Shown here piece after piece: positions 553-7,329 of a stretch of DNA of 7,329 nucleotides. This DNA comes from a virus (Duplodnaviria; Heunggongvirae; Uroviricota; Caudoviricetes). Each line of letters begins with the position of its first letter. Within the stretch, counting starts at the first letter, position 1. Location of the stretch: IMG/VR virus record IMGVR_UViG_2681813205_000003; one strand, given 5' to 3'. Both the position numbers and the translations under genes were made by a program. The notes below the pieces were generated by a model that did not search any database, was not told the DNA's origin, and saw only the letters and a list, made by a program, of their open reading frames with translations.

Positions 553-1353
553 TTAACCGCGCTTCGCCTTCTGCGTCGCGGTGGTTTTTCGTGTTGCAGG
601 CTTCCGCGTTGTCTTTTTACTTTTGCTGCTTTCGTCCTGCGCCTGCTGTGCGCTGGCGTCTTCTGATGCGCCTGCGGAATCGGCTTTTTTCAGGGCGCGG
701 GAAAGGGTTGCAATCTCGCGTTTCACACCTGCGTTCGGGTTCAGGTGCATTGCTTCGCGCAGCAGCTTCAGTGACAGGGCCATGCTGTCCGCATCACTCA
801 GACCACGACGGGCAAAGGCGCACGCCTTGCATAATTTGGCGCGCACTTCGTCCGGCATGTCCTGGTTGGCGACAATTTCCCAAAGTGTGTCCAGTGGTTC
901 GATAAAGGCGGATAAATCCGCGTCGGCATCCGTCCCGGCCTGCGTCAGTACCGGGTTGCAGATTTCTTCGGTCAGTACCGTGGCTGCAGTACGTCCAAAG
1001 TTATCCGGCATGATGAGGTTGTGACGGACCACATATGCACCAATACGCAGCGCCAGCGGAAGATCGCCGCAGTCAATCGCCCACACCATCAGCGTGGCAA
1101 TCACTTCATCCTGCTGCCCGCCGTCAGCCTCCAGCGTTCCCTCAATCCAGCCGGAAAAGTCCGGCAATAACTCTTTTTTGATGGCGGCTTTCGCGCTTCT
1201 GGCCTGTACGCCCTTAAGCCGGGCCTGTGCCAGACGCAGACGATACAGCACCTCTTCATGCGCGGTACGCGCGGCGTGGTCCACGCCTTCATTCGCCCGG
1301 CCTGCGCGCTGTGCCATCACGTTCTGCCAGTGTTGCTGTGCAGGAGTAATCAT
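553..1353 (-). CDS. M: Terminase small (endonuclease) subunit, P2 gpM-like
   Basis: 266-aa ORF from ATG at 1353 to TAA at 553-555 (complement), with GGAGAG upstream. The translation (MITPAQQHWQNVMAQRAG...EVLYRLRLAQARLKGV...IATLMVWAIDCGDLPLALRIGAYVVRHNLIMPDNFGRTAATVLTEE...) fits the P2 gpM family as I recall it, and it sits between N and L as in P2. It ends in a low-complexity basic tail (KSKKTTRKPATRKTTATQKAKRG). Confidence 0.85.
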   Translation of the reverse strand: MITPAQQHWQNVMAQRAGRANEGVDHAARTAHEEVLYRLRLAQARLKGVQARSAKAAIKKELLPDFSGWIEGTLEADGGQQDEVIATLMVWAIDCGDLPLALRIGAYVVRHNLIMPDNFGRTAATVLTEEICNPVLTQAGTDADADLSAFIEPLDTLWEIVANQDMPDEVRAKLCKACAFARRGLSDADSMALSLKLLREAMHLNPNAGVKREIATLSRALKKADSAGASEDASAQQAQDESSKSKKTTRKPATRKTTATQKAKRG

Positions 1354-1398: not shown

Positions 1399-2451
1399 TT
1401 AGCTGTCGGCGAACTTCAGGCCAGTGACCATCGCGCACTTGCCATAGTCTTCAACGACATAAGCGTCATTGATGGACTGGTAGGTGGCGATGCGGTTGTA
1501 TTCCGGCTCGTCTTTCATCAGGCGACGCATTGTTCCTTTCTGCCAGTAAATTGACAGGTTGTTGAACGAGGTGATCAGCATCGTTGCATCCGGGAAGAAC
1601 GGCGCAAGGAATACATCCAGCCCGCCAATGGCGCGCGATGACAGGATGAGCTGTCCGGCAAGTAATTCCGCATTGGGATTCTGGCCGCTGATGCTGTTCA
1701 GCACGGGCAGACGCAGCGAGTTAAACAGGTTGCGCCCCATAATCACCACGAGGTCGTCAGCTTCCTTGTGCCATTCATCCAGCAGGGATGAGCGCGCGTC
1801 CTGTACCAGTGCATCAGCGTTCGCATACTTACCCGCGTGCGCCACGGTGTTGTCCATGTTGCGGGAGGTCAGCGTTACATCATTCATAACGCGCTCGCTG
1901 GCGTCGGTTCTGATGTGCTCCAGCCATCCCACGTTAACGTCCTGAAGCAGCTTGTTAGTGCTGAAGTTGGACTCATCTGCGTGAGACGTGCCGTTGAAAC
2001 CGATCATGATGCGGTCAAGCGCCACCTGCCGGGCAATCTGTGTGCTGACGCGGGACTGAAAATCAGGGTGTGCCGCCCAGGCATCAAGCTGCGGATACGA
2101 AATAAACGTGTCGTAGTTCACCTGTTCGCACTGGTATTTGCGGTTTTTCAGATCAACCACGTTATTCGGGTTACGGCGTTTTGTGCCGTCATAACTGGTA
2201 TTCGTGCGCGCAATCGGCCCGGTGGTGTCCAGGAGGATTTTTTCGCCTTTCTGGTCAGTCACACCGAACACGTTAATTTTTTTTGTAAATTCAGTGCTCT
2301 CCTTTACTGCGTTTTCAAAACGCTGCTGCACCGAGGGTTCTACGGTAAATCGCGATACCAGTGCAGATACCGGGATATTGTTAAGCGACGCCTGCTGCGC
2401 CATATAGCAACCCAGCTTGTTGCGGGTAATATCTGACATCACCAGATTCAT
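1399..2451 (-). CDS. N: Major capsid protein, P2 gpN-like
   Basis: 350-aa ORF. The ATG at 2451 is preceded by AAGGAG with 10-nt spacing (aaaggagcaaattttttATG on the reverse strand). The translation (…FTVEPSVQQRFENAVKESTEFTKKINVFGVTDQKGEKILLDTTGPIARTNTS…) matches my recollection of the P2-family major capsid protein, and it lies directly downstream of O. Confidence 0.9.
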   Translation of the reverse strand: MNLVMSDITRNKLGCYMAQQASLNNIPVSALVSRFTVEPSVQQRFENAVKESTEFTKKINVFGVTDQKGEKILLDTTGPIARTNTSYDGTKRRNPNNVVDLKNRKYQCEQVNYDTFISYPQLDAWAAHPDFQSRVSTQIARQVALDRIMIGFNGTSHADESNFSTNKLLQDVNVGWLEHIRTDASERVMNDVTLTSRNMDNTVAHAGKYANADALVQDARSSLLDEWHKEADDLVVIMGRNLFNSLRLPVLNSISGQNPNAELLAGQLILSSRAIGGLDVFLAPFFPDATMLITSFNNLSIYWQKGTMRRLMKDEPEYNRIATYQSINDAYVVEDYGKCAMVTGLKFADS

Positions 2452-2474: not shown

Positions 2475-3311
2475 TCAGAAGTCAGCCAGCTGGTCGGAGG
2501 CTGCGCCCGTTGCGGTGAACCGGTTCTGCGGATCGCCGTCCTGCGTGCGCAGTTTTTCCTTCAGTGCTGTCAGCTCTGTGGTCAGTGACGTAATTTTCTG
2601 GCGGTCCTGCTGATGGCGGGTTTCCAGCACATTAAAACGGTCGATAATGTCGGCCTGTGACGTTGCGACGCCTTCCACCGCTTCCTGAATACGGGAAAAA
2701 CTGGCGTCATCCGCTTTGCGGCCACGGCCAATAATCCCCATTACGCGGTTAAACCACTGGGTGCCTTCTTCCTGGCGTTGTTCTGCCATTTCGATGATTT
2801 CAGACTCGATGGCTTCGGAGATAAGCGGCGCTTCACCCTGGACACTGTTGAACGTCATTACCGCCTGACGTTGCTGTGCCGTGAATTTCAGGCGCTCAGT
2901 GCCCAGGCTTGCCGGGGTGTCGGTCATCGCCAGCCCGACCAGATAGGCGCGCCCGTTAACGGAGAACTGCGGGTGCAGTTCGATACTGGAATAGATTTTC
3001 TTGCCGTCCGCGACAAGCTGCTTCATGCGCTCGGTCGGTTCGATTTCTGCATACAGCGCAGTACGTCCGGCCAGCGGACCTTCCGTAATGTCTTCCGTAC
3101 TCAGTGCGGTGACATCGCCCATTGCGGAAAATTCGCTTGACGGGCATGGCGAGAGATAGTGCTCAACGTTCACGCGGGCAGCGTAAACATCCGGGTTGAA
3201 GTTCTCGGCGGCTTCACGCAGATGCACCGGACTGATTTCACGGCCATCAACAGTTGATCCGGAGACAGCCACGCGAAACTTTTTGCGGGATGTCTTTTTT
3301 TCATTAGCCAT
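2475..3311 (-). CDS. O: Capsid scaffolding protein, P2 gpO-like
   Basis: ORF-track frame 2475..3344. I place the start at the internal ATG at 3311 (MANEKKTSRKKFRVAVSGSTVDGREISPVHLREAAENFNPDVYAARVNVEHY...) because it has a GAGGGG ribosome-binding site 8 nt upstream and the N-terminus then resembles my recollection of P2 gpO (MAKKVSKFFRIGVEGDTCDGRVIS...). Downstream motifs (YSSIELHPQF, YLVGLAMTDTPASLGTERLKF) fit the GPO family. Confidence 0.87.
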   Translation of the reverse strand: MANEKKTSRKKFRVAVSGSTVDGREISPVHLREAAENFNPDVYAARVNVEHYLSPCPSSEFSAMGDVTALSTEDITEGPLAGRTALYAEIEPTERMKQLVADGKKIYSSIELHPQFSVNGRAYLVGLAMTDTPASLGTERLKFTAQQRQAVMTFNSVQGEAPLISEAIESEIIEMAEQRQEEGTQWFNRVMGIIGRGRKADDASFSRIQEAVEGVATSQADIIDRFNVLETRHQQDRQKITSLTTELTALKEKLRTQDGDPQNRFTATGAASDQLADF

Positions 3312-3465
3312 AGTTTTTGCCCCTCTGACTGGTTCTTCAGTCATGATGGCAAAGCGTAACAGGCTGATACAAAGGGCTTTTGTTGTAAGAAAACGGCCAG
3401 AACAGGGGGTTAAGGAGAACAGTTTCGCGCGCGGGTAATCTTCCTGTAATTACTCAGGGGGAGCA
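3312..3465. promoter_or_regulatory. Divergent intergenic control region between O (minus) and P (plus); expected site of the two late promoters
   Basis: 154-bp non-coding gap between divergently transcribed operons, as at the P2 P/O junction. It contains a partial dyad TGTTGT...AGAACA (3381-3404), a small ACAAA/TTTGT inverted repeat (3369-3386), a CGCGCGCG palindrome (3426-3433) and a TGTAAT -10-like hexamer (3445-3450). No exact TGT-N12-ACA activator dyad and no clean sigma70 -35/-10 pair found by eye. Confidence 0.5.
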
Positions 3466-5217
3466 ATGATTCAGGACGCTTTTGTGCGCCAGCGTGCGCG
3501 GCAACTTTACTGGCAGGGTTATCCGCCCGCAGAAATATCACGTCTGATGGGAATAAACCCGAACACGATTTATGCGTGGAAAAAACGCGACCAGTGGGAT
3601 GAAACGCCACCCGTGCAGCGTGTCACGCAGTCCATCGATGCGCGCCTCATCCAGCTTACTGAAAAACAGAATAAAACAGGCGGTGACTTTAAGGAAATAG
3701 ACCTGCTGACCCGGCAGCTTAAAAAACTGCATGATGGCCAGCCGGATGCGACGGCCACAGGAAAGAAAGGCCGGGCGAAAAAACTCAAAAATCATTTCAC
3801 GCCGGAACAGATTGCCGCACTGCGGGAAAAAATCATCAGCAGGCTGGAGTGGCATCAGCGGGGCTGGTTTGACTCCCTGACCCTTTGCAGGGAAGCCGGG
3901 ATACGTAACAGGATGATCCTGAAATCCCGACAGATTGGGGCGACCTGGTATTTTGCACAGGAAGCACTGCTGATGGCGCTGCGTGACGATGTGGCGCAAC
4001 CTTACCAGCGTAACCAGATTTTTTTGTCTGCGTCGCGTCGTCAGGCGTTCCAGTTTAAAAGCATTATTCAGAAGGCCGCGGCTGAAGTTGATGTGGAGCT
4101 GAAAGGGGGCGATAAAATCATCCTCTCCAACGGCGCAGAGCTGCATTTTCTCGGCACTTCTGCTGCGTCGGCACAGTCCTATACGGGCAATTTTTATTTT
4201 GATGAATTTTTCTGGGTCAGTCGCTTTGCTGAACTGCGCAAGGTGGCTGGCGCTATGGCAACCCTCAGCGGACTGCGGCGCACCTACTTCTCCACGCCAT
4301 CCACCGAAACGCACGAGGCATACGCCTACTGGAATGGCGACCGCTGGAACGAGAAAAAGGCCTCGCATAAACGCCAGCGTTTTTCTGTGGACTGGAAAAC
4401 GCTGCATAACGGGCTTATCTGCCCTGACCGGACGTGGCGGCAAATTGTCACGCTGGAAGATGTGGTTAATCACGGCTGGAAACACACCGATATCGACGAA
4501 ATTCGTGATGAAAACACCGAAGACGAGTTCCTCAATCTCTATATGTGTGAGTTTGTCCGCGAAGGGGAATCGGCATTTAACCTGAATATCCTGATTGGCT
4601 GCGGTGTTGACGGATACGACGACTGGAAAGACTGGAAACCTTTTGCTCCCCGACCGATGGGGAATCGTCCGGTATGGATTGGGTATGACGCAAACGGCAG
4701 TAGTGGCAACGGCGACAGCGGCGCTGTGTCCGTTGTGGTTCCTCCGGCTGTTCCTGGTGGCCGTTTTCGAACGGTGGAGACTCGACGCGTTCAGGGGCTG
4801 GAGTTTGAAGAGCAGGCCAGAGTCATTGAAGAGTTCACGTATCGCTACAACGTGGAACACATCGGCATTGATGTGACGGGCGGGAACGGGGAGGCTGTTT
4901 ATCAGATAGTGAAGCGGTTTTTCCCTGCTGCTATTCCGTACACCTTCACGCTGTCATCAAAACGGTCGCTGGTACTGAAAATGCTGCAAATAATGCGTGC
5001 CGGGCGGTGGGAATACGATCGCGCCGAACGCGAGCTGGTCGCGGCCTTTAACGCCGTGCGTAAGGTGAAAACACCGGGCGGCTTTATCACTTACGAAACG
5101 GACCGAGCGAGGGGGATCAGCCACGGCGACCTTGCGTGGGCAACCATGCTTGCTGTCATTAACGAACCGATTGGCGGCGAAGGAGAAAACGAGCGTTTCA
5201 CGGTTATGGAGTTCTGA
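3466..5217 (+). CDS. P: Terminase large (ATPase) subunit, P2 gpP-like
   Basis: 583-aa ORF with a G-rich ribosome-binding site (cagggggagcaATG). N-terminal HTH-like segment (YPPAEISRLMGINPNTIYAWKKR), deviant Walker A-like KSRQIGATWYFAQ and Walker B-like FYFDEFFW, all typical of P2-type terminase ATPase subunits as I recall them. Its stop overlaps the start of the portal gene. Confidence 0.9.
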   Translation: MIQDAFVRQRARQLYWQGYPPAEISRLMGINPNTIYAWKKRDQWDETPPVQRVTQSIDARLIQLTEKQNKTGGDFKEIDLLTRQLKKLHDGQPDATATGKKGRAKKLKNHFTPEQIAALREKIISRLEWHQRGWFDSLTLCREAGIRNRMILKSRQIGATWYFAQEALLMALRDDVAQPYQRNQIFLSASRRQAFQFKSIIQKAAAEVDVELKGGDKIILSNGAELHFLGTSAASAQSYTGNFYFDEFFWVSRFAELRKVAGAMATLSGLRRTYFSTPSTETHEAYAYWNGDRWNEKKASHKRQRFSVDWKTLHNGLICPDRTWRQIVTLEDVVNHGWKHTDIDEIRDENTEDEFLNLYMCEFVREGESAFNLNILIGCGVDGYDDWKDWKPFAPRPMGNRPVWIGYDANGSSGNGDSGAVSVVVPPAVPGGRFRTVETRRVQGLEFEEQARVIEEFTYRYNVEHIGIDVTGGNGEAVYQIVKRFFPAAIPYTFTLSSKRSLVLKMLQIMRAGRWEYDRAERELVAAFNAVRKVKTPGGFITYETDRARGISHGDLAWATMLAVINEPIGGEGENERFTVMEF

Positions 5218-6263
5218 TGAGCAGAAAAAATAAAAAAGTGCGCATGAGTTCACGCATTGATCTCGCTGATGCGCTCAGGAAAGAATCATCGCTCAGTGCA
5301 TTCACATTTGATGGTCCTTATCGCCTGACCGGGCATGACCTGCTGGATAATATGTACTGTGCTGATAACGGGCGGTGGTATGAAACCCCGGTGGACTGGT
5401 ACGGTCTGGCAAGAGCTGCCCGGCAAACGTCCTGGCATCAGTCTGCGCTTTACTTTAAGCGCAATGTATTACTCGGTTGCTACATCCCGCACCCGTTGCT
5501 TTCCCGGCAGGATTTCTCGGCGCTGGCGCTGGACTGGTTTGTGTTCGGTAACGCATTCCTTGAGCTTCGAAGCAATATGCTCGGCGAACCGCTTAAATTA
5601 CGGCACGCCCTGGCGAAATACATGCGACGCGGAAGCGATCTTGAATCATGGTGGTATGTGCAGGATGGCAAGGGCGCGTTCCAGTTTCGCCCTGGCAAAG
5701 TGTGCCACCTGATGAATCCGGACATTAACCAGGAAATCTACGGCATGCCGGAATATCTTGGCGCATTACTCTCGGCCAGCCTGTCTCATTCGGCGGACAT
5801 GTTCAGAAAACTGTACTACGACAACGGATCCCACGCCGGGTGCATCATCTACATCGGTGCAGCGCAGGTAAACCGCGAAAGCATGGACTCCCTGAAGGAA
5901 ACGCTACAGGGGGCACGTGGTGGTGGTGCGTTTAAAAACGTGCTCATTCATGCGCCCAACGGGGGCAAAGAGGGGGTGCAAATTTTGCCGTTCCAGCAGA
6001 TCACCGCAAAGGATGAGTTCATGAATGTTAAGGCGGCATCCCGTGATGATGTGCTGGCTTCGCACCGCGTTCCGCCGCAACTGATGGGGGCGATGCCGGG
6101 CGAAAAAAGTGCGTTTGGTGATGTGGAGAAGGCAGCGCGGGTTTACGCAATTAACGAGCTGATGCCTGTCATGGAGGCCATGAAGCACATCAATGACTGG
6201 CTTGGTGAAGAGGTGATCCGTTTTAATTCTTATGCTCTTCTTGATGAAAAAACAGCCCCGTGA
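5217..6263 (+). CDS. Q: Portal protein (capsid portal vertex), P2 gpQ-like
   Basis: 348-aa ORF starting at the ATG in the TGATG overlap with the P stop (5215-5219). The translation fits my recollection of P2 gpQ / PBSX-type portal proteins, and P followed by Q matches P2 order. It ends at TGA 6261-6263, inside the loop of the downstream terminator hairpin. Confidence 0.9.
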   Translation: MSRKNKKVRMSSRIDLADALRKESSLSAFTFDGPYRLTGHDLLDNMYCADNGRWYETPVDWYGLARAARQTSWHQSALYFKRNVLLGCYIPHPLLSRQDFSALALDWFVFGNAFLELRSNMLGEPLKLRHALAKYMRRGSDLESWWYVQDGKGAFQFRPGKVCHLMNPDINQEIYGMPEYLGALLSASLSHSADMFRKLYYDNGSHAGCIIYIGAAQVNRESMDSLKETLQGARGGGAFKNVLIHAPNGGKEGVQILPFQQITAKDEFMNVKAASRDDVLASHRVPPQLMGAMPGEKSAFGDVEKAARVYAINELMPVMEAMKHINDWLGEEVIRFNSYALLDEKTAP

Positions 6264-6280
6264 TGGGGCTGTCCTTTTTA
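6245..6280. terminator. Bidirectional intrinsic terminator shared by the convergent Q gene and the 6278..6802 ORF
   Basis: Stem acagcccc (6252-6259) / ggggctgt (6265-6272), 8 bp, with a 5-nt loop gtgat. It is followed on plus by ccttttta (T5) and preceded on plus by gaaaaaa (6245-6251), which gives a U-run after the same hairpin on the minus strand. The stop codons of both convergent genes abut or overlap the structure. Confidence 0.7.
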
Positions 6281-6802
6281 CCAGAGTTGAACCATTTTCT
6301 GGGTGCCGTCAGGCTTGAGATTATCAATTTCAGAGAGAACGTAATATTGGATGGCTTCACAAACGGTGGTGTATGGTGAATTACCTTCTTTAAGTGGCAC
6401 GATATTATTATTAACGCGAACCTGTATTTCATCGTTATACATTGCGATCGAAAGAGGAGTATGCACGAACGCGACTTCGCCAGGTGTGTCGTCAACCACT
6501 GTCTCAATGCTGAAAATCAGTTTTCGCTCATCATTGCCGCCCCTTGCTTTGGGGGTGGCGGCAGGAATCTGAGATAAAGGCATTCTGCGAAACCCTTCAG
6601 TTGTTTCCAGTCCGCATGAAACGTAATGCTGGCGATTACCGTCGCTATCCGTCCATGTCTGTGATGGCAGCTCCAGAGAGATTTCATAAGCATCAACAAT
6701 TCCCTGGGCAAGGTGTACAAGCGGGGTCAGATCTTCATTGCGGCGAAAACTTTCCTTTACCTGCTCTCGTTTTTCTCGTAACTGCTTGTAATTAATGACC
6801 AT
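6278..6802 (-). CDS. Hypothetical protein of unknown function (174 aa); candidate accessory/cargo gene of the prophage
   Basis: Minus-strand ORF. I favour the ATG at 6802 (MVINYKQLREKREQVKESFRRNEDLTPLVH...) because of a strong GGAGG 7 nt upstream (aatggaggctgttttATG); the ORF-track start at 6841 is a GTG. It ends at TAA (complement of 6278-6280) inside the bidirectional terminator. I recognise no family and see no Walker, HEPN or nuclease motif. Hand counts of 60-nt blocks give about 35-52% GC here versus about 55-65% in the structural genes. Confidence 0.6.
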   Translation of the reverse strand: MVINYKQLREKREQVKESFRRNEDLTPLVHLAQGIVDAYEISLELPSQTWTDSDGNRQHYVSCGLETTEGFRRMPLSQIPAATPKARGGNDERKLIFSIETVVDDTPGEVAFVHTPLSIAMYNDEIQVRVNNNIVPLKEGNSPYTTVCEAIQYYVLSEIDNLKPDGTQKMVQLW

Positions 6803-6904
6803 AAAACAGCCTCCATTGATTTCTTTGCTCGTATTTTGCACTTATGAAGTGTGGTCGGCAAGGTGCTGCATCACTGACGCGCTTCGCTTGTCTGCTGCTT
6901 CGCC

Positions 6905-6927
6905 GGGGCATAAAAAATTTATGCCCC
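6905..6927. repeat. Perfect 10-bp-arm inverted repeat with 3-bp spacer (GGGGCATAAA-aaa-TTTATGCCCC)
   Basis: ggggcataaaaaatttatgcccc at 6905-6927 is exactly self-complementary. It lies about 100 bp upstream of the 6802 start codon (in minus-strand sense) and 18 nt downstream of a possible 42-codon small ORF. No T-run follows on either strand, so it is more likely a protein-binding palindrome or RNA hairpin than a canonical terminator. Confidence 0.5.
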
Positions 6928-7207
6928 GACTCTCCAGCTCCTGTATCAGTCAGATAATTTCACGACGCCTTCCAGCTTATTGCCATCATCGGCGGTCAAG
7001 CTCTTACGCCATCCCATCGCGCTGACTGCATGTTCCCGCCGCCCCAGTGCGATTTTGACGGCCTTACCTTTCATCCCATCAAATCAGAACCCCTTACGTC
7101 TTTTTCACGCTCAGCGTGAGCGATACAGCCATTCTGTTGTGTCGCTGCGACATCGTTCAGGGAGTGCTATTTACCCCCTGAAACGCGGGCTGTTCCCCCG
7201 TCACCTG

Positions 7208-7231
7208 CGCGCAGAAAAAGCGCGTTTTTTT
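7208..7231 (+). terminator. Weak candidate plus-strand intrinsic terminator (5-bp GC stem, 7-nt loop, T7 run)
   Basis: cgcgc (7208-7212) / gcgcg (7220-7224) with loop agaaaaa, followed by ttttttt (7225-7231). The stem is short, and no plus-strand gene is evident upstream, so function is uncertain. Confidence 0.3.
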
Positions 7232-7239
7232 GTGCACGC

Positions 7240-7258
7240 ACGGATCCTTGACGGATCC
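7240..7258. repeat. Tandem direct repeat ACGGATCC x2 at 11-bp spacing, each containing the GGATCC palindrome
   Basis: acggatcc at 7240-7247 and 7251-7258, separated by ttg. The one-helical-turn phasing suggests a paired protein-binding site. Confidence 0.45.
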
Positions 7259-7301
7259 AGCCGCAACGCGGGCCGGAAGGGCAAAAAGTCGTTCAAAAAA
7301 A

Positions 7302-7328
7302 TTGTGCAAATTTGTGCACTATTGTGCA
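7302..7328. repeat. Three phased direct repeats TTGTGCA at 10-bp spacing (iteron/operator-like); array may continue beyond the window
   Basis: ttgtgca at 7302-7308, 7312-7318 and 7322-7328. A fourth TGTGCA lies at 7231-7236, immediately after the T-run. The window ends inside the array. Confidence 0.5.
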
Positions 7329-7329
7329 T

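Follow-up and report, generated by a model that had tools for sequence, protein, structure and literature searches.

In a stretch of phage DNA of 7,329 nucleotides, which we call the window, the portal gene is followed by a gene-sized segment that is poorer in GC than the head genes beside it. An earlier note on this sequence took the drop for the mark of moron-like cargo. [quoted passage not shown] The locus thus raises several questions: is the drop real, does it coincide with a segment that close relatives lack, was this segment gained or lost, and what might its protein do?

Results

The window and its phage

The window covers the head genes of a P88-like phage (Xuanwuvirus, P2-family), and the deposited phages closest to it are P88-like Peduoviridae of the genus Xuanwuvirus. 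Its top match among complete genomes is a prophage adjoining btuC in E. coli 2313 (NZ_AP027159), with 98.5% identity over the entire window. Table 1 gives the coordinates of the features discussed below.

Table 1. Features of the window, with positions counted from its first nucleotide.
Feature	Position	Strand	Details and source
Terminase small subunit M	553-1353	-	
Capsid N	1399-2451	-	
Scaffold O	2475-3344	-	
Terminase large subunit P	3466-5217	+	
Portal gene Q, 348 aa	5217-6263	+	Pfam Phage_portal, E 4.8e-17
Variable cassette	6239-6872	.	Pairwise alignment, BLAST segments and three-way junction alignment against P88
Bidirectional intrinsic terminator (predicted)	6247-6279	.	A-tract 6247-6252, hairpin 6252-6272, T-tract 6275-6279; terminator scan
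Cargo ORF, 174 aa	6278-6802	-	Stop 6278-6280 (TAA), ATG 6802-6800; ORF list; WP_001407222; PHROG 5091
RBS GGAGG	6810-6814	-	7 nt upstream of ATG; from sequence
Candidate sigma-70 promoter of cargo ORF	6833-6861	-	-35 TTGCCG (6861-6856), 17-nt spacer, -10 CAAAAT (6838-6833)
Conserved Xuanwuvirus-specific cos-proximal region	6873-7329	.	91.5-93.7% identity in all 16 P88-like phage records
Perfect 11-bp hairpin CGGGGCATAAA aaa TTTATGCCCCG	6904-6928	.	Repeat search; folds at -18.0 and -24.5 kcal/mol

The low-GC segment holds a single gene, the cargo ORF, read on the strand opposite to the portal gene. Its true start is probably the ATG at 6802, which gives 174 amino acids, rather than the GTG at 6841 (187 codons), because records ON470599 and NZ_AP027159 annotate 174 amino acids and the ribosome binding site fits the ATG; the motif GGAG is invariant in five of five aligned upstream regions. 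Compared with the copy in ON470599, the ORF has 21 synonymous and 6 non-synonymous changes, with dN/dS of 0.07; compared with a Salmonella copy, dN/dS is 0.15. The cargo gene is real and under purifying selection.

Two observations concern the head genes themselves. Positions 1-1353 of the window, a partial gene L and gene M, have just 92-97% identity to the E. coli 2313 prophage, against 99.8-100% for N, O and the cassette, and we therefore place a recombination boundary near the M/N junction. The longest ORF of the scaffold gene O encodes 289 amino acids and related records annotate 278 (837 nt), so that translation probably begins at an ATG 11 codons into this ORF.

The drop in composition

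Positions 6264-6850 have a GC content of 0.453, and the ORF over positions 6278-6841 has 0.454, with 0.441 at third codon positions (GC3). The corresponding GC values for the head genes are 0.586 for M, 0.534 for N, 0.560 for O, 0.540 for P and 0.532 for Q, with GC3 of 0.60-0.68. When all intervals of 587 nucleotides in the sequence are ranked, the lowest GC, 0.451, is that of the interval starting at 6220; those wholly upstream of 6264 have a mean of 0.549, a standard deviation (sd) of 0.025 and a minimum of 0.501, which puts the cargo region about 3.8 sd low. A profile in steps of 200 nucleotides goes from 0.555 (6001-6200) to 0.43-0.49 (6201-7000), and is back at 0.535-0.56 after 6900. The earlier note was thus right in seeing a gene-sized drop, and in placing its beginning at the terminator of Q. 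Its estimate of 55-65% GC for the structural genes was too high, since they measure 53-59%, and the drop is uneven: successive blocks of 60 nucleotides in the ORF have GC contents of 0.48, 0.38, 0.33, 0.57, 0.53, 0.47, 0.52, 0.50, 0.37 and 0.43. The AT-richness sits at both ends of the ORF (33-43% GC), while the middle, at 47-57%, is near the values of the flanks.

The complete related prophage of E. coli 2313 (hereafter L003) allows the same comparison over a whole set of genes, with a codon adaptation index (CAI) built from the structural genes. The cargo ORF of L003 has GC 0.459, GC3 0.446 and CAI 0.649, which are respectively 2.7, 2.4 and 2.0 sd under the structural-gene means (0.553 +/- 0.035, 0.614 +/- 0.071 and 0.730 +/- 0.041).

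There is always the possibility that such a drop is ordinary variation within a genome, with nothing to say on the history of the gene. The early-region genes of L003 (GC 0.44-0.50), its tail-fibre genes and its other cargo are indeed as low as the cargo ORF or lower, so that composition alone does not single out this ORF, and the middle of the ORF reaches 50-57% GC. However, the segment holds the very lowest of the 587-nt intervals, far under the upstream ones, and the drop matches, within about 25 nucleotides, the presence/absence segment that is defined independently in the next section. Ordinary variation is largely refuted by this match, and we give it next to no credence.

The cargo-family gene is below the GC of its flanks in all 21 homologue loci compared (21/21), with a mean gap of 7.9 points. 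Low GC characterises the family in general, and is no evidence of recent arrival. The drop is real and non-random, yet by itself not diagnostic.

A segment that is present or absent

The phage P88 has an empty site, and comparison with it sets the limits of the segment. BLAST homology to P88 ends at 6238 and restarts at 6869-6873, and the part that diverges at the codon level is 6246-6868: a cassette of about 623-634 bp, from about 6239/6246 to 6868/6872, stands in place of 10-20 nucleotides of P88. When the C-termini of the two portal proteins, which are 97.7% identical, are aligned directly, they agree up to ...YALLD, and then read EKTAP-stop in the window and TQPTS-stop in P88. The last five codons of Q (6246-6260) and its stop codon (6261-6263) fall inside the variable segment, and part of the C-terminus of the portal protein is thus encoded by the cargo segment.

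Among deposited phages, megablast finds four records with all of positions 6264-7329, and 12 records, P88 and 11 others, with only 6869-7329; in these 12 the equivalent of 6869-7329 joins the portal gene directly. A survey of 5426 complete E. coli genomes finds the junction in 1146 of them, 397 with the filled form. In most of the roughly 750 others, as judged from an evenly spaced sample of the non-filled genomes, the two flanks are about 285 bp apart, which is the empty site. Outside the segment, empty-site phages and genomes have flanks of 93-98% identity. Closely related phages differ in having or lacking exactly this segment, which can be dispensed with and exchanged. Some 7% of the complete E. 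coli genomes thus carry a conserved, uncharacterised cassette of a single gene.

Three of the four structural traits in the definition of a moron (PMC3594210) are found here. The cassette is extra DNA between features that are adjacent in a close relative; its composition is unlike that of its neighbours (GC 0.45 against 0.53-0.59, GC3 0.44 against 0.60-0.68); and a hairpin predicted on the - strand gives it a terminator of its own. For the fourth, a promoter of its own that works in the repressed prophage, the cassette has a candidate, described below. The reading as moron-like cargo is supported, chiefly by the comparison of presence and absence, and less by the composition from which it was originally drawn.

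Gain or loss

A repeat search at 6239-6246 and 6865-6872 found no direct or inverted repeats flanking the cassette, and a Pfam search found no transposase or integrase domain in its single ORF. A transposon or insertion sequence, which would bring terminal repeats and target duplications, was accordingly rejected.

The right junction offers a possible leftover of a P88-type end of Q, CATCACTGA at 6869-6877 compared with CATCCTGA, which weakly favours insertion. The junction alone gives no decision between insertion and deletion. A homologue that is 62.5% identical fills the same slot in a P2-like phage of Salmonella, convergent with the portal gene. The head proteins of that phage are 63-79% identical to those of the window, and such co-divergence of the homologue with the head proteins favours antiquity of the gene in the slot. 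It is natural to ask whether the P2 family has long had the gene in this slot, and the P88-type genomes lost it by a small deletion or replacement, the low GC being a bias of the gene family. That the low GC is family-wide, and that the junction is a replacement of 10-20 bp by 623-634 bp rather than a clean insertion, would both suit this history. Against it are the putative relic at the right junction and the homologue of Trabulsiella, which lies beside gpA, away from the portal gene. Divergence also differs between the cassette and its flanks: with respect to ON470599, dS is 0.20 for the cargo ORF and 0.07 for the adjacent Q, a ratio of about three; with respect to E. coli 2313, identity is 100% in the cassette and 96.1% in the right flank. 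Finally, copies at least 90% identical are found in E. coli, Salmonella and Yersinia enterocolitica. On balance we hold long residence followed by loss to be unlikely. The mosaic divergence of cassette and flanks fits exchange by recombination among related prophages, and under gain or loss alike the cargo gene is dispensable and exchangeable.

Predicted signals of transcription

The hairpin of the terminator between the two convergent genes has 8-9 GC-rich base pairs, followed by UUUUUU on the - strand and CCUUUUU on the + strand, and the RNA folds at -18.8 kcal/mol (z -4.6) on the + strand and at -21.5 kcal/mol (z -5.8) on the - strand. The stop codon of Q lies within the loop, the T-tract overlaps the stop codon of the cargo ORF, and the A-tract codes for a Glu-Lys pair of Q. 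This structure is predicted to serve both genes, Q with its late P-Q transcript when read on the + strand, the cargo ORF when read on the - strand. The C-terminal EK of Q, which both gene-carrying phages share, could be taken as the mark of a common end of the cassette; we did not adopt this interpretation, since the A-tract, which any bidirectional terminator requires, accounts for EK more simply, and since the two hairpins also differ in sequence.

The candidate promoter of Table 1 agrees with the consensus at 8 of 12 positions, under the scan threshold of 9, and was thus missed by the scan. Its hexamers and spacing are retained in the diverged Salmonella homologue (TTGTCT-17-CAAAAT), where the surrounding sequence has diverged. 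The cargo ORF thus probably has its own weak, sigma-70-like promoter within the cassette. Inspection of the sequence revealed no Ogr-type late promoter motif for the ORF. A non-coding RNA in the cassette region was considered and rejected, as Rfam yields no match at E <= 1 across 6100-7329.

Read together, these signals suggest a self-contained unit on the - strand, in which a weak sigma-70-type promoter would be followed by the GGAGG ribosome binding site, the gene of 174 codons and, last, a strong hairpin that acts as terminator. On the + strand this hairpin would end the late P-Q transcript, and its A-tract would supply the last codons of Q. The cargo gene would then have a promoter of its own that drives it while the prophage is repressed; its transcription would converge on the late operon, with the shared terminator insulating one from the other.

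The cos-proximal region and the gpA-gpQ hotspot

The right flank of the cassette leads to the end of the phage genome. The linear record LR595891 starts and ends exactly at 7283|7284 of the window, and from these ends we infer a probable genome end, the cos cut, at about 7283/7284. The 19-mer of the P2 cos was not found in the related prophage with up to 3 mismatches allowed. Short repeats cluster at 7225-7329, around this position: ACGGATCC occurs twice (7240-7258), AACGCGGGC at 7182 and 7265, (A)TTGTGCA three times (7301-7328) and TTGTGCAC at 7230, with a terminator-like hairpin nearby at 7207-7225. These repeats are plausibly binding sites of the terminase or of a host factor.

The perfect hairpin at 6904-6928 has no U-tract on either strand. 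It is part of the conserved flank and is kept in all P88-like phages: in the empty-site phages it lies about 20 nucleotides past the stop codon of Q, and in the window, just upstream of the cargo promoter. A terminator of Q, an insulator and a protein-binding site are candidate roles. The conserved stretch that leads from the portal gene to the inferred cos also contains an ORF of 42 amino acids on the - strand (6946-7074, MKGKAVKIALGRREHAVSAMGWRKSLTADDGNKLEGVVKLSD), annotated as hypothetical in P88 (SF19_gp22) and in P88_4B11, with no match in Pfam, PHROG, NCBIfam or PADLOC.

Rousset et al. (2022, PMC9122126) described a cos-proximal hotspot of P2-like phages, bounded by gpA, a replication gene, and gpQ, the portal gene; it is precisely there that the cassette lies in the annotated prophages L001, L002 and L003. 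Table S5A of the same study lists WP_001407222, as hypothetical, in gpA-gpQ arrangements. The cassette is on the portal side of the inferred cos, where the site is a simple present/absent polymorphism, and the main variable block of the hotspot in P88-like phages is on the gpA side. The cargo protein matches none of the validated systems of the hotspot.

We thus consider it likely that the low-GC stretch is a compact, dispensable moron at the portal-proximal edge of the cos-adjacent gpA-gpQ hotspot of a P88-like prophage. It would be one of textbook quality, with boundaries known within a few nucleotides and a terminator shared with the late operon. As such the cassette is an ordinary feature of temperate phages, in a hotspot already catalogued, and leaves the view of phage genomes unchanged: the remaining interest lies in its uncharacterised protein.

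The cargo protein and its family

By computation, the cargo protein has a mass of 19.8 kDa and a pI of 5.0: it is mildly acidic and probably soluble, with a net charge of -7 and no hydrophobic segment. It matches PHROG 5091 over its full length (residues 1-168 against positions 1-164 of 164, E 6.8e-67), a family whose function is unassigned, so that membership brings no mechanism. The ORF has no match in Pfam, NCBIfam or PADLOC (PADLOC-DB 2.0: none at E <= 1), and its protein belongs to no known anti-phage defence family among the HMMs of PADLOC-DB 2.0. Searches with 42 members of the family gave no Pfam or NCBIfam domain and just one marginal PADLOC match, to PDC-S26 (E 0.009). A profile search against PDB sequences returned only noise, with a best E of 0.11, and structural comparison of the cargo protein gave no significant relative, all matches being under the usable threshold. 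The AlphaFold model (pLDDT 81.7) opens with a helical hairpin at the N-terminus and closes with a helix at the C-terminus, and it includes an antiparallel sheet. From these results we infer an alpha+beta protein free of any enzyme signature, which offers no basis for an enzymatic activity.

A word-indexed search finds 19 relatives, all enterobacterial, and an exhaustive profile search, 89 cluster representatives of 155-175 amino acids, which share the motifs Y-x2-S-L-x-L-P, W-x-D, Y-V and F-x-I-x-T-V-x-D-D-S-P; the invariant residues in the motifs include Y39, S42, W50, Y60, T101, D104/D105 and C148. The wider family has about 90 clusters at 50% identity in Proteobacteria, with no detectable relative among solved structures. 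Every cluster member is named 'hypothetical protein', and we found no mention of WP_001407222 or phrog_5091 in the main text of papers.

The homologues sit in diverse places. That of Trabulsiella comes directly after gpA, and is followed by HicB and Phd/Fic modules. Among the distant relatives, one lies in a baseplate cluster, between the genes of the baseplate spike and of the sheath initiator; another comes after a P22-type antirepressor (Ant) and HicAB; others, in HK97-like cos phages, lie between the lysis cassette and the HNH/terminase genes; and one is solitary on a bacterial chromosome. The family is always lower in GC than its surroundings, and occupies accessory slots in several types of phages.

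In the HK97-like cos phages (IMG/VR records L025-L033, L051, L070 and L073), the relatives directly precede the genes for the HNH endonuclease and the terminase and come after a lysis cassette of GH19 endolysin and Rz, amid other small variable genes. This slot is a second cos-adjacent one used by the family. A large IMG/VR group with the gene beside the portal gene was considered as a second P2-like lineage, and turned out to consist of the same E. coli P88-like phages; it was excluded from the independent evidence.

Possible functions of the cargo protein

The closest structural parallels are the morons of lambdoid phages, such as the element of HK97 gene 15 and the bor and lom genes of lambda. 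They too are extra segments between genes that are adjacent in relatives, and the cassette shares with them a differing GC content, its own predicted terminator, a candidate promoter and a single small gene. Unlike them, it resides in a P2-like myovirus, in a slot between the portal gene and cos, and its protein has no similarity of sequence or fold with gp15, Bor or Lom. Within the P2 family, the prophage presumably expresses old, tin and Z/fun, whose products are believed to stop other phages (PMC9122126). Like the cassette, they are non-essential prophage genes in variable regions, with old and tin near cos; the searches of PADLOC and Pfam show no homology between them and the cargo protein.

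By analogy with P2 old, tin and fun and with HK97 gp15, the cargo product may bind another protein, and so exclude or inhibit competing phages. That it is a protein-binding factor of exclusion or defence, expressed in the lysogen, is a proposal drawn from location and precedent only, and we advance it tentatively. A large share of the tested unknowns of the hotspot prove to be anti-phage systems, which makes the cassette a candidate, and a follow-up study (2026, NAR, PMC13586616) classifies 15-32% of the unknown proteins of the P2 hotspot as antiviral by machine learning. However, the gpA-gpQ hotspot in P88-like phages also contains ParM/StbA partition genes, which are not defence genes. A bolder form of the proposal sees in the cargo protein a new anti-phage, or anti-defence, protein encoded by one gene, whose family would have entered moron slots time and again, beside cos and in tail modules, in three or more phage architectures: this we regard as possible and rather doubtful.

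The protein could also aid the phage itself during infection, for instance as an anti-defence inhibitor expressed early from the incoming end of the genome, with no protection of the lysogen. Its net charge is far from that of DNA mimics, the structural matches are all under the usable threshold, and one relative is solitary on a bacterial chromosome; this role seems to us unlikely. An optional accessory of the virion or of packaging, associated for example with the portal or with a DNA end, would agree with the location of the family beside packaging and portal genes, or inside tail modules, in three phage architectures. However, about two thirds of otherwise near-identical prophages lack the gene, which is moreover convergent with the late operon and devoid of an Ogr-type late motif; the position of the family varies within tail modules, and the solitary chromosomal relative also speaks against it. 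An accessory of this kind is very improbable. Exclusion of competing phages from the lysogen thus stays our working proposal, with the reservation just expressed.

Other variable genes of these prophages

Genes of the ParM/StbA type lie between cos and gpA in L003 (21263-23044), L001 (6728-8006) and L002 (5231-6506), and parM of E. coli 2313 has an internal stop. Beside these partition genes are variable small genes, including one for a hypothetical protein of 135 amino acids with a GC content of 0.429. A much stronger outlier in composition than the cargo ORF is a serine O-acetyltransferase gene at 5628-6200 of L003, with GC 0.346 and GC3 0.298. With the tail genes on one side and a tail-fibre assembly gene on the other, it stands where P2 has its Z/fun hotspot.
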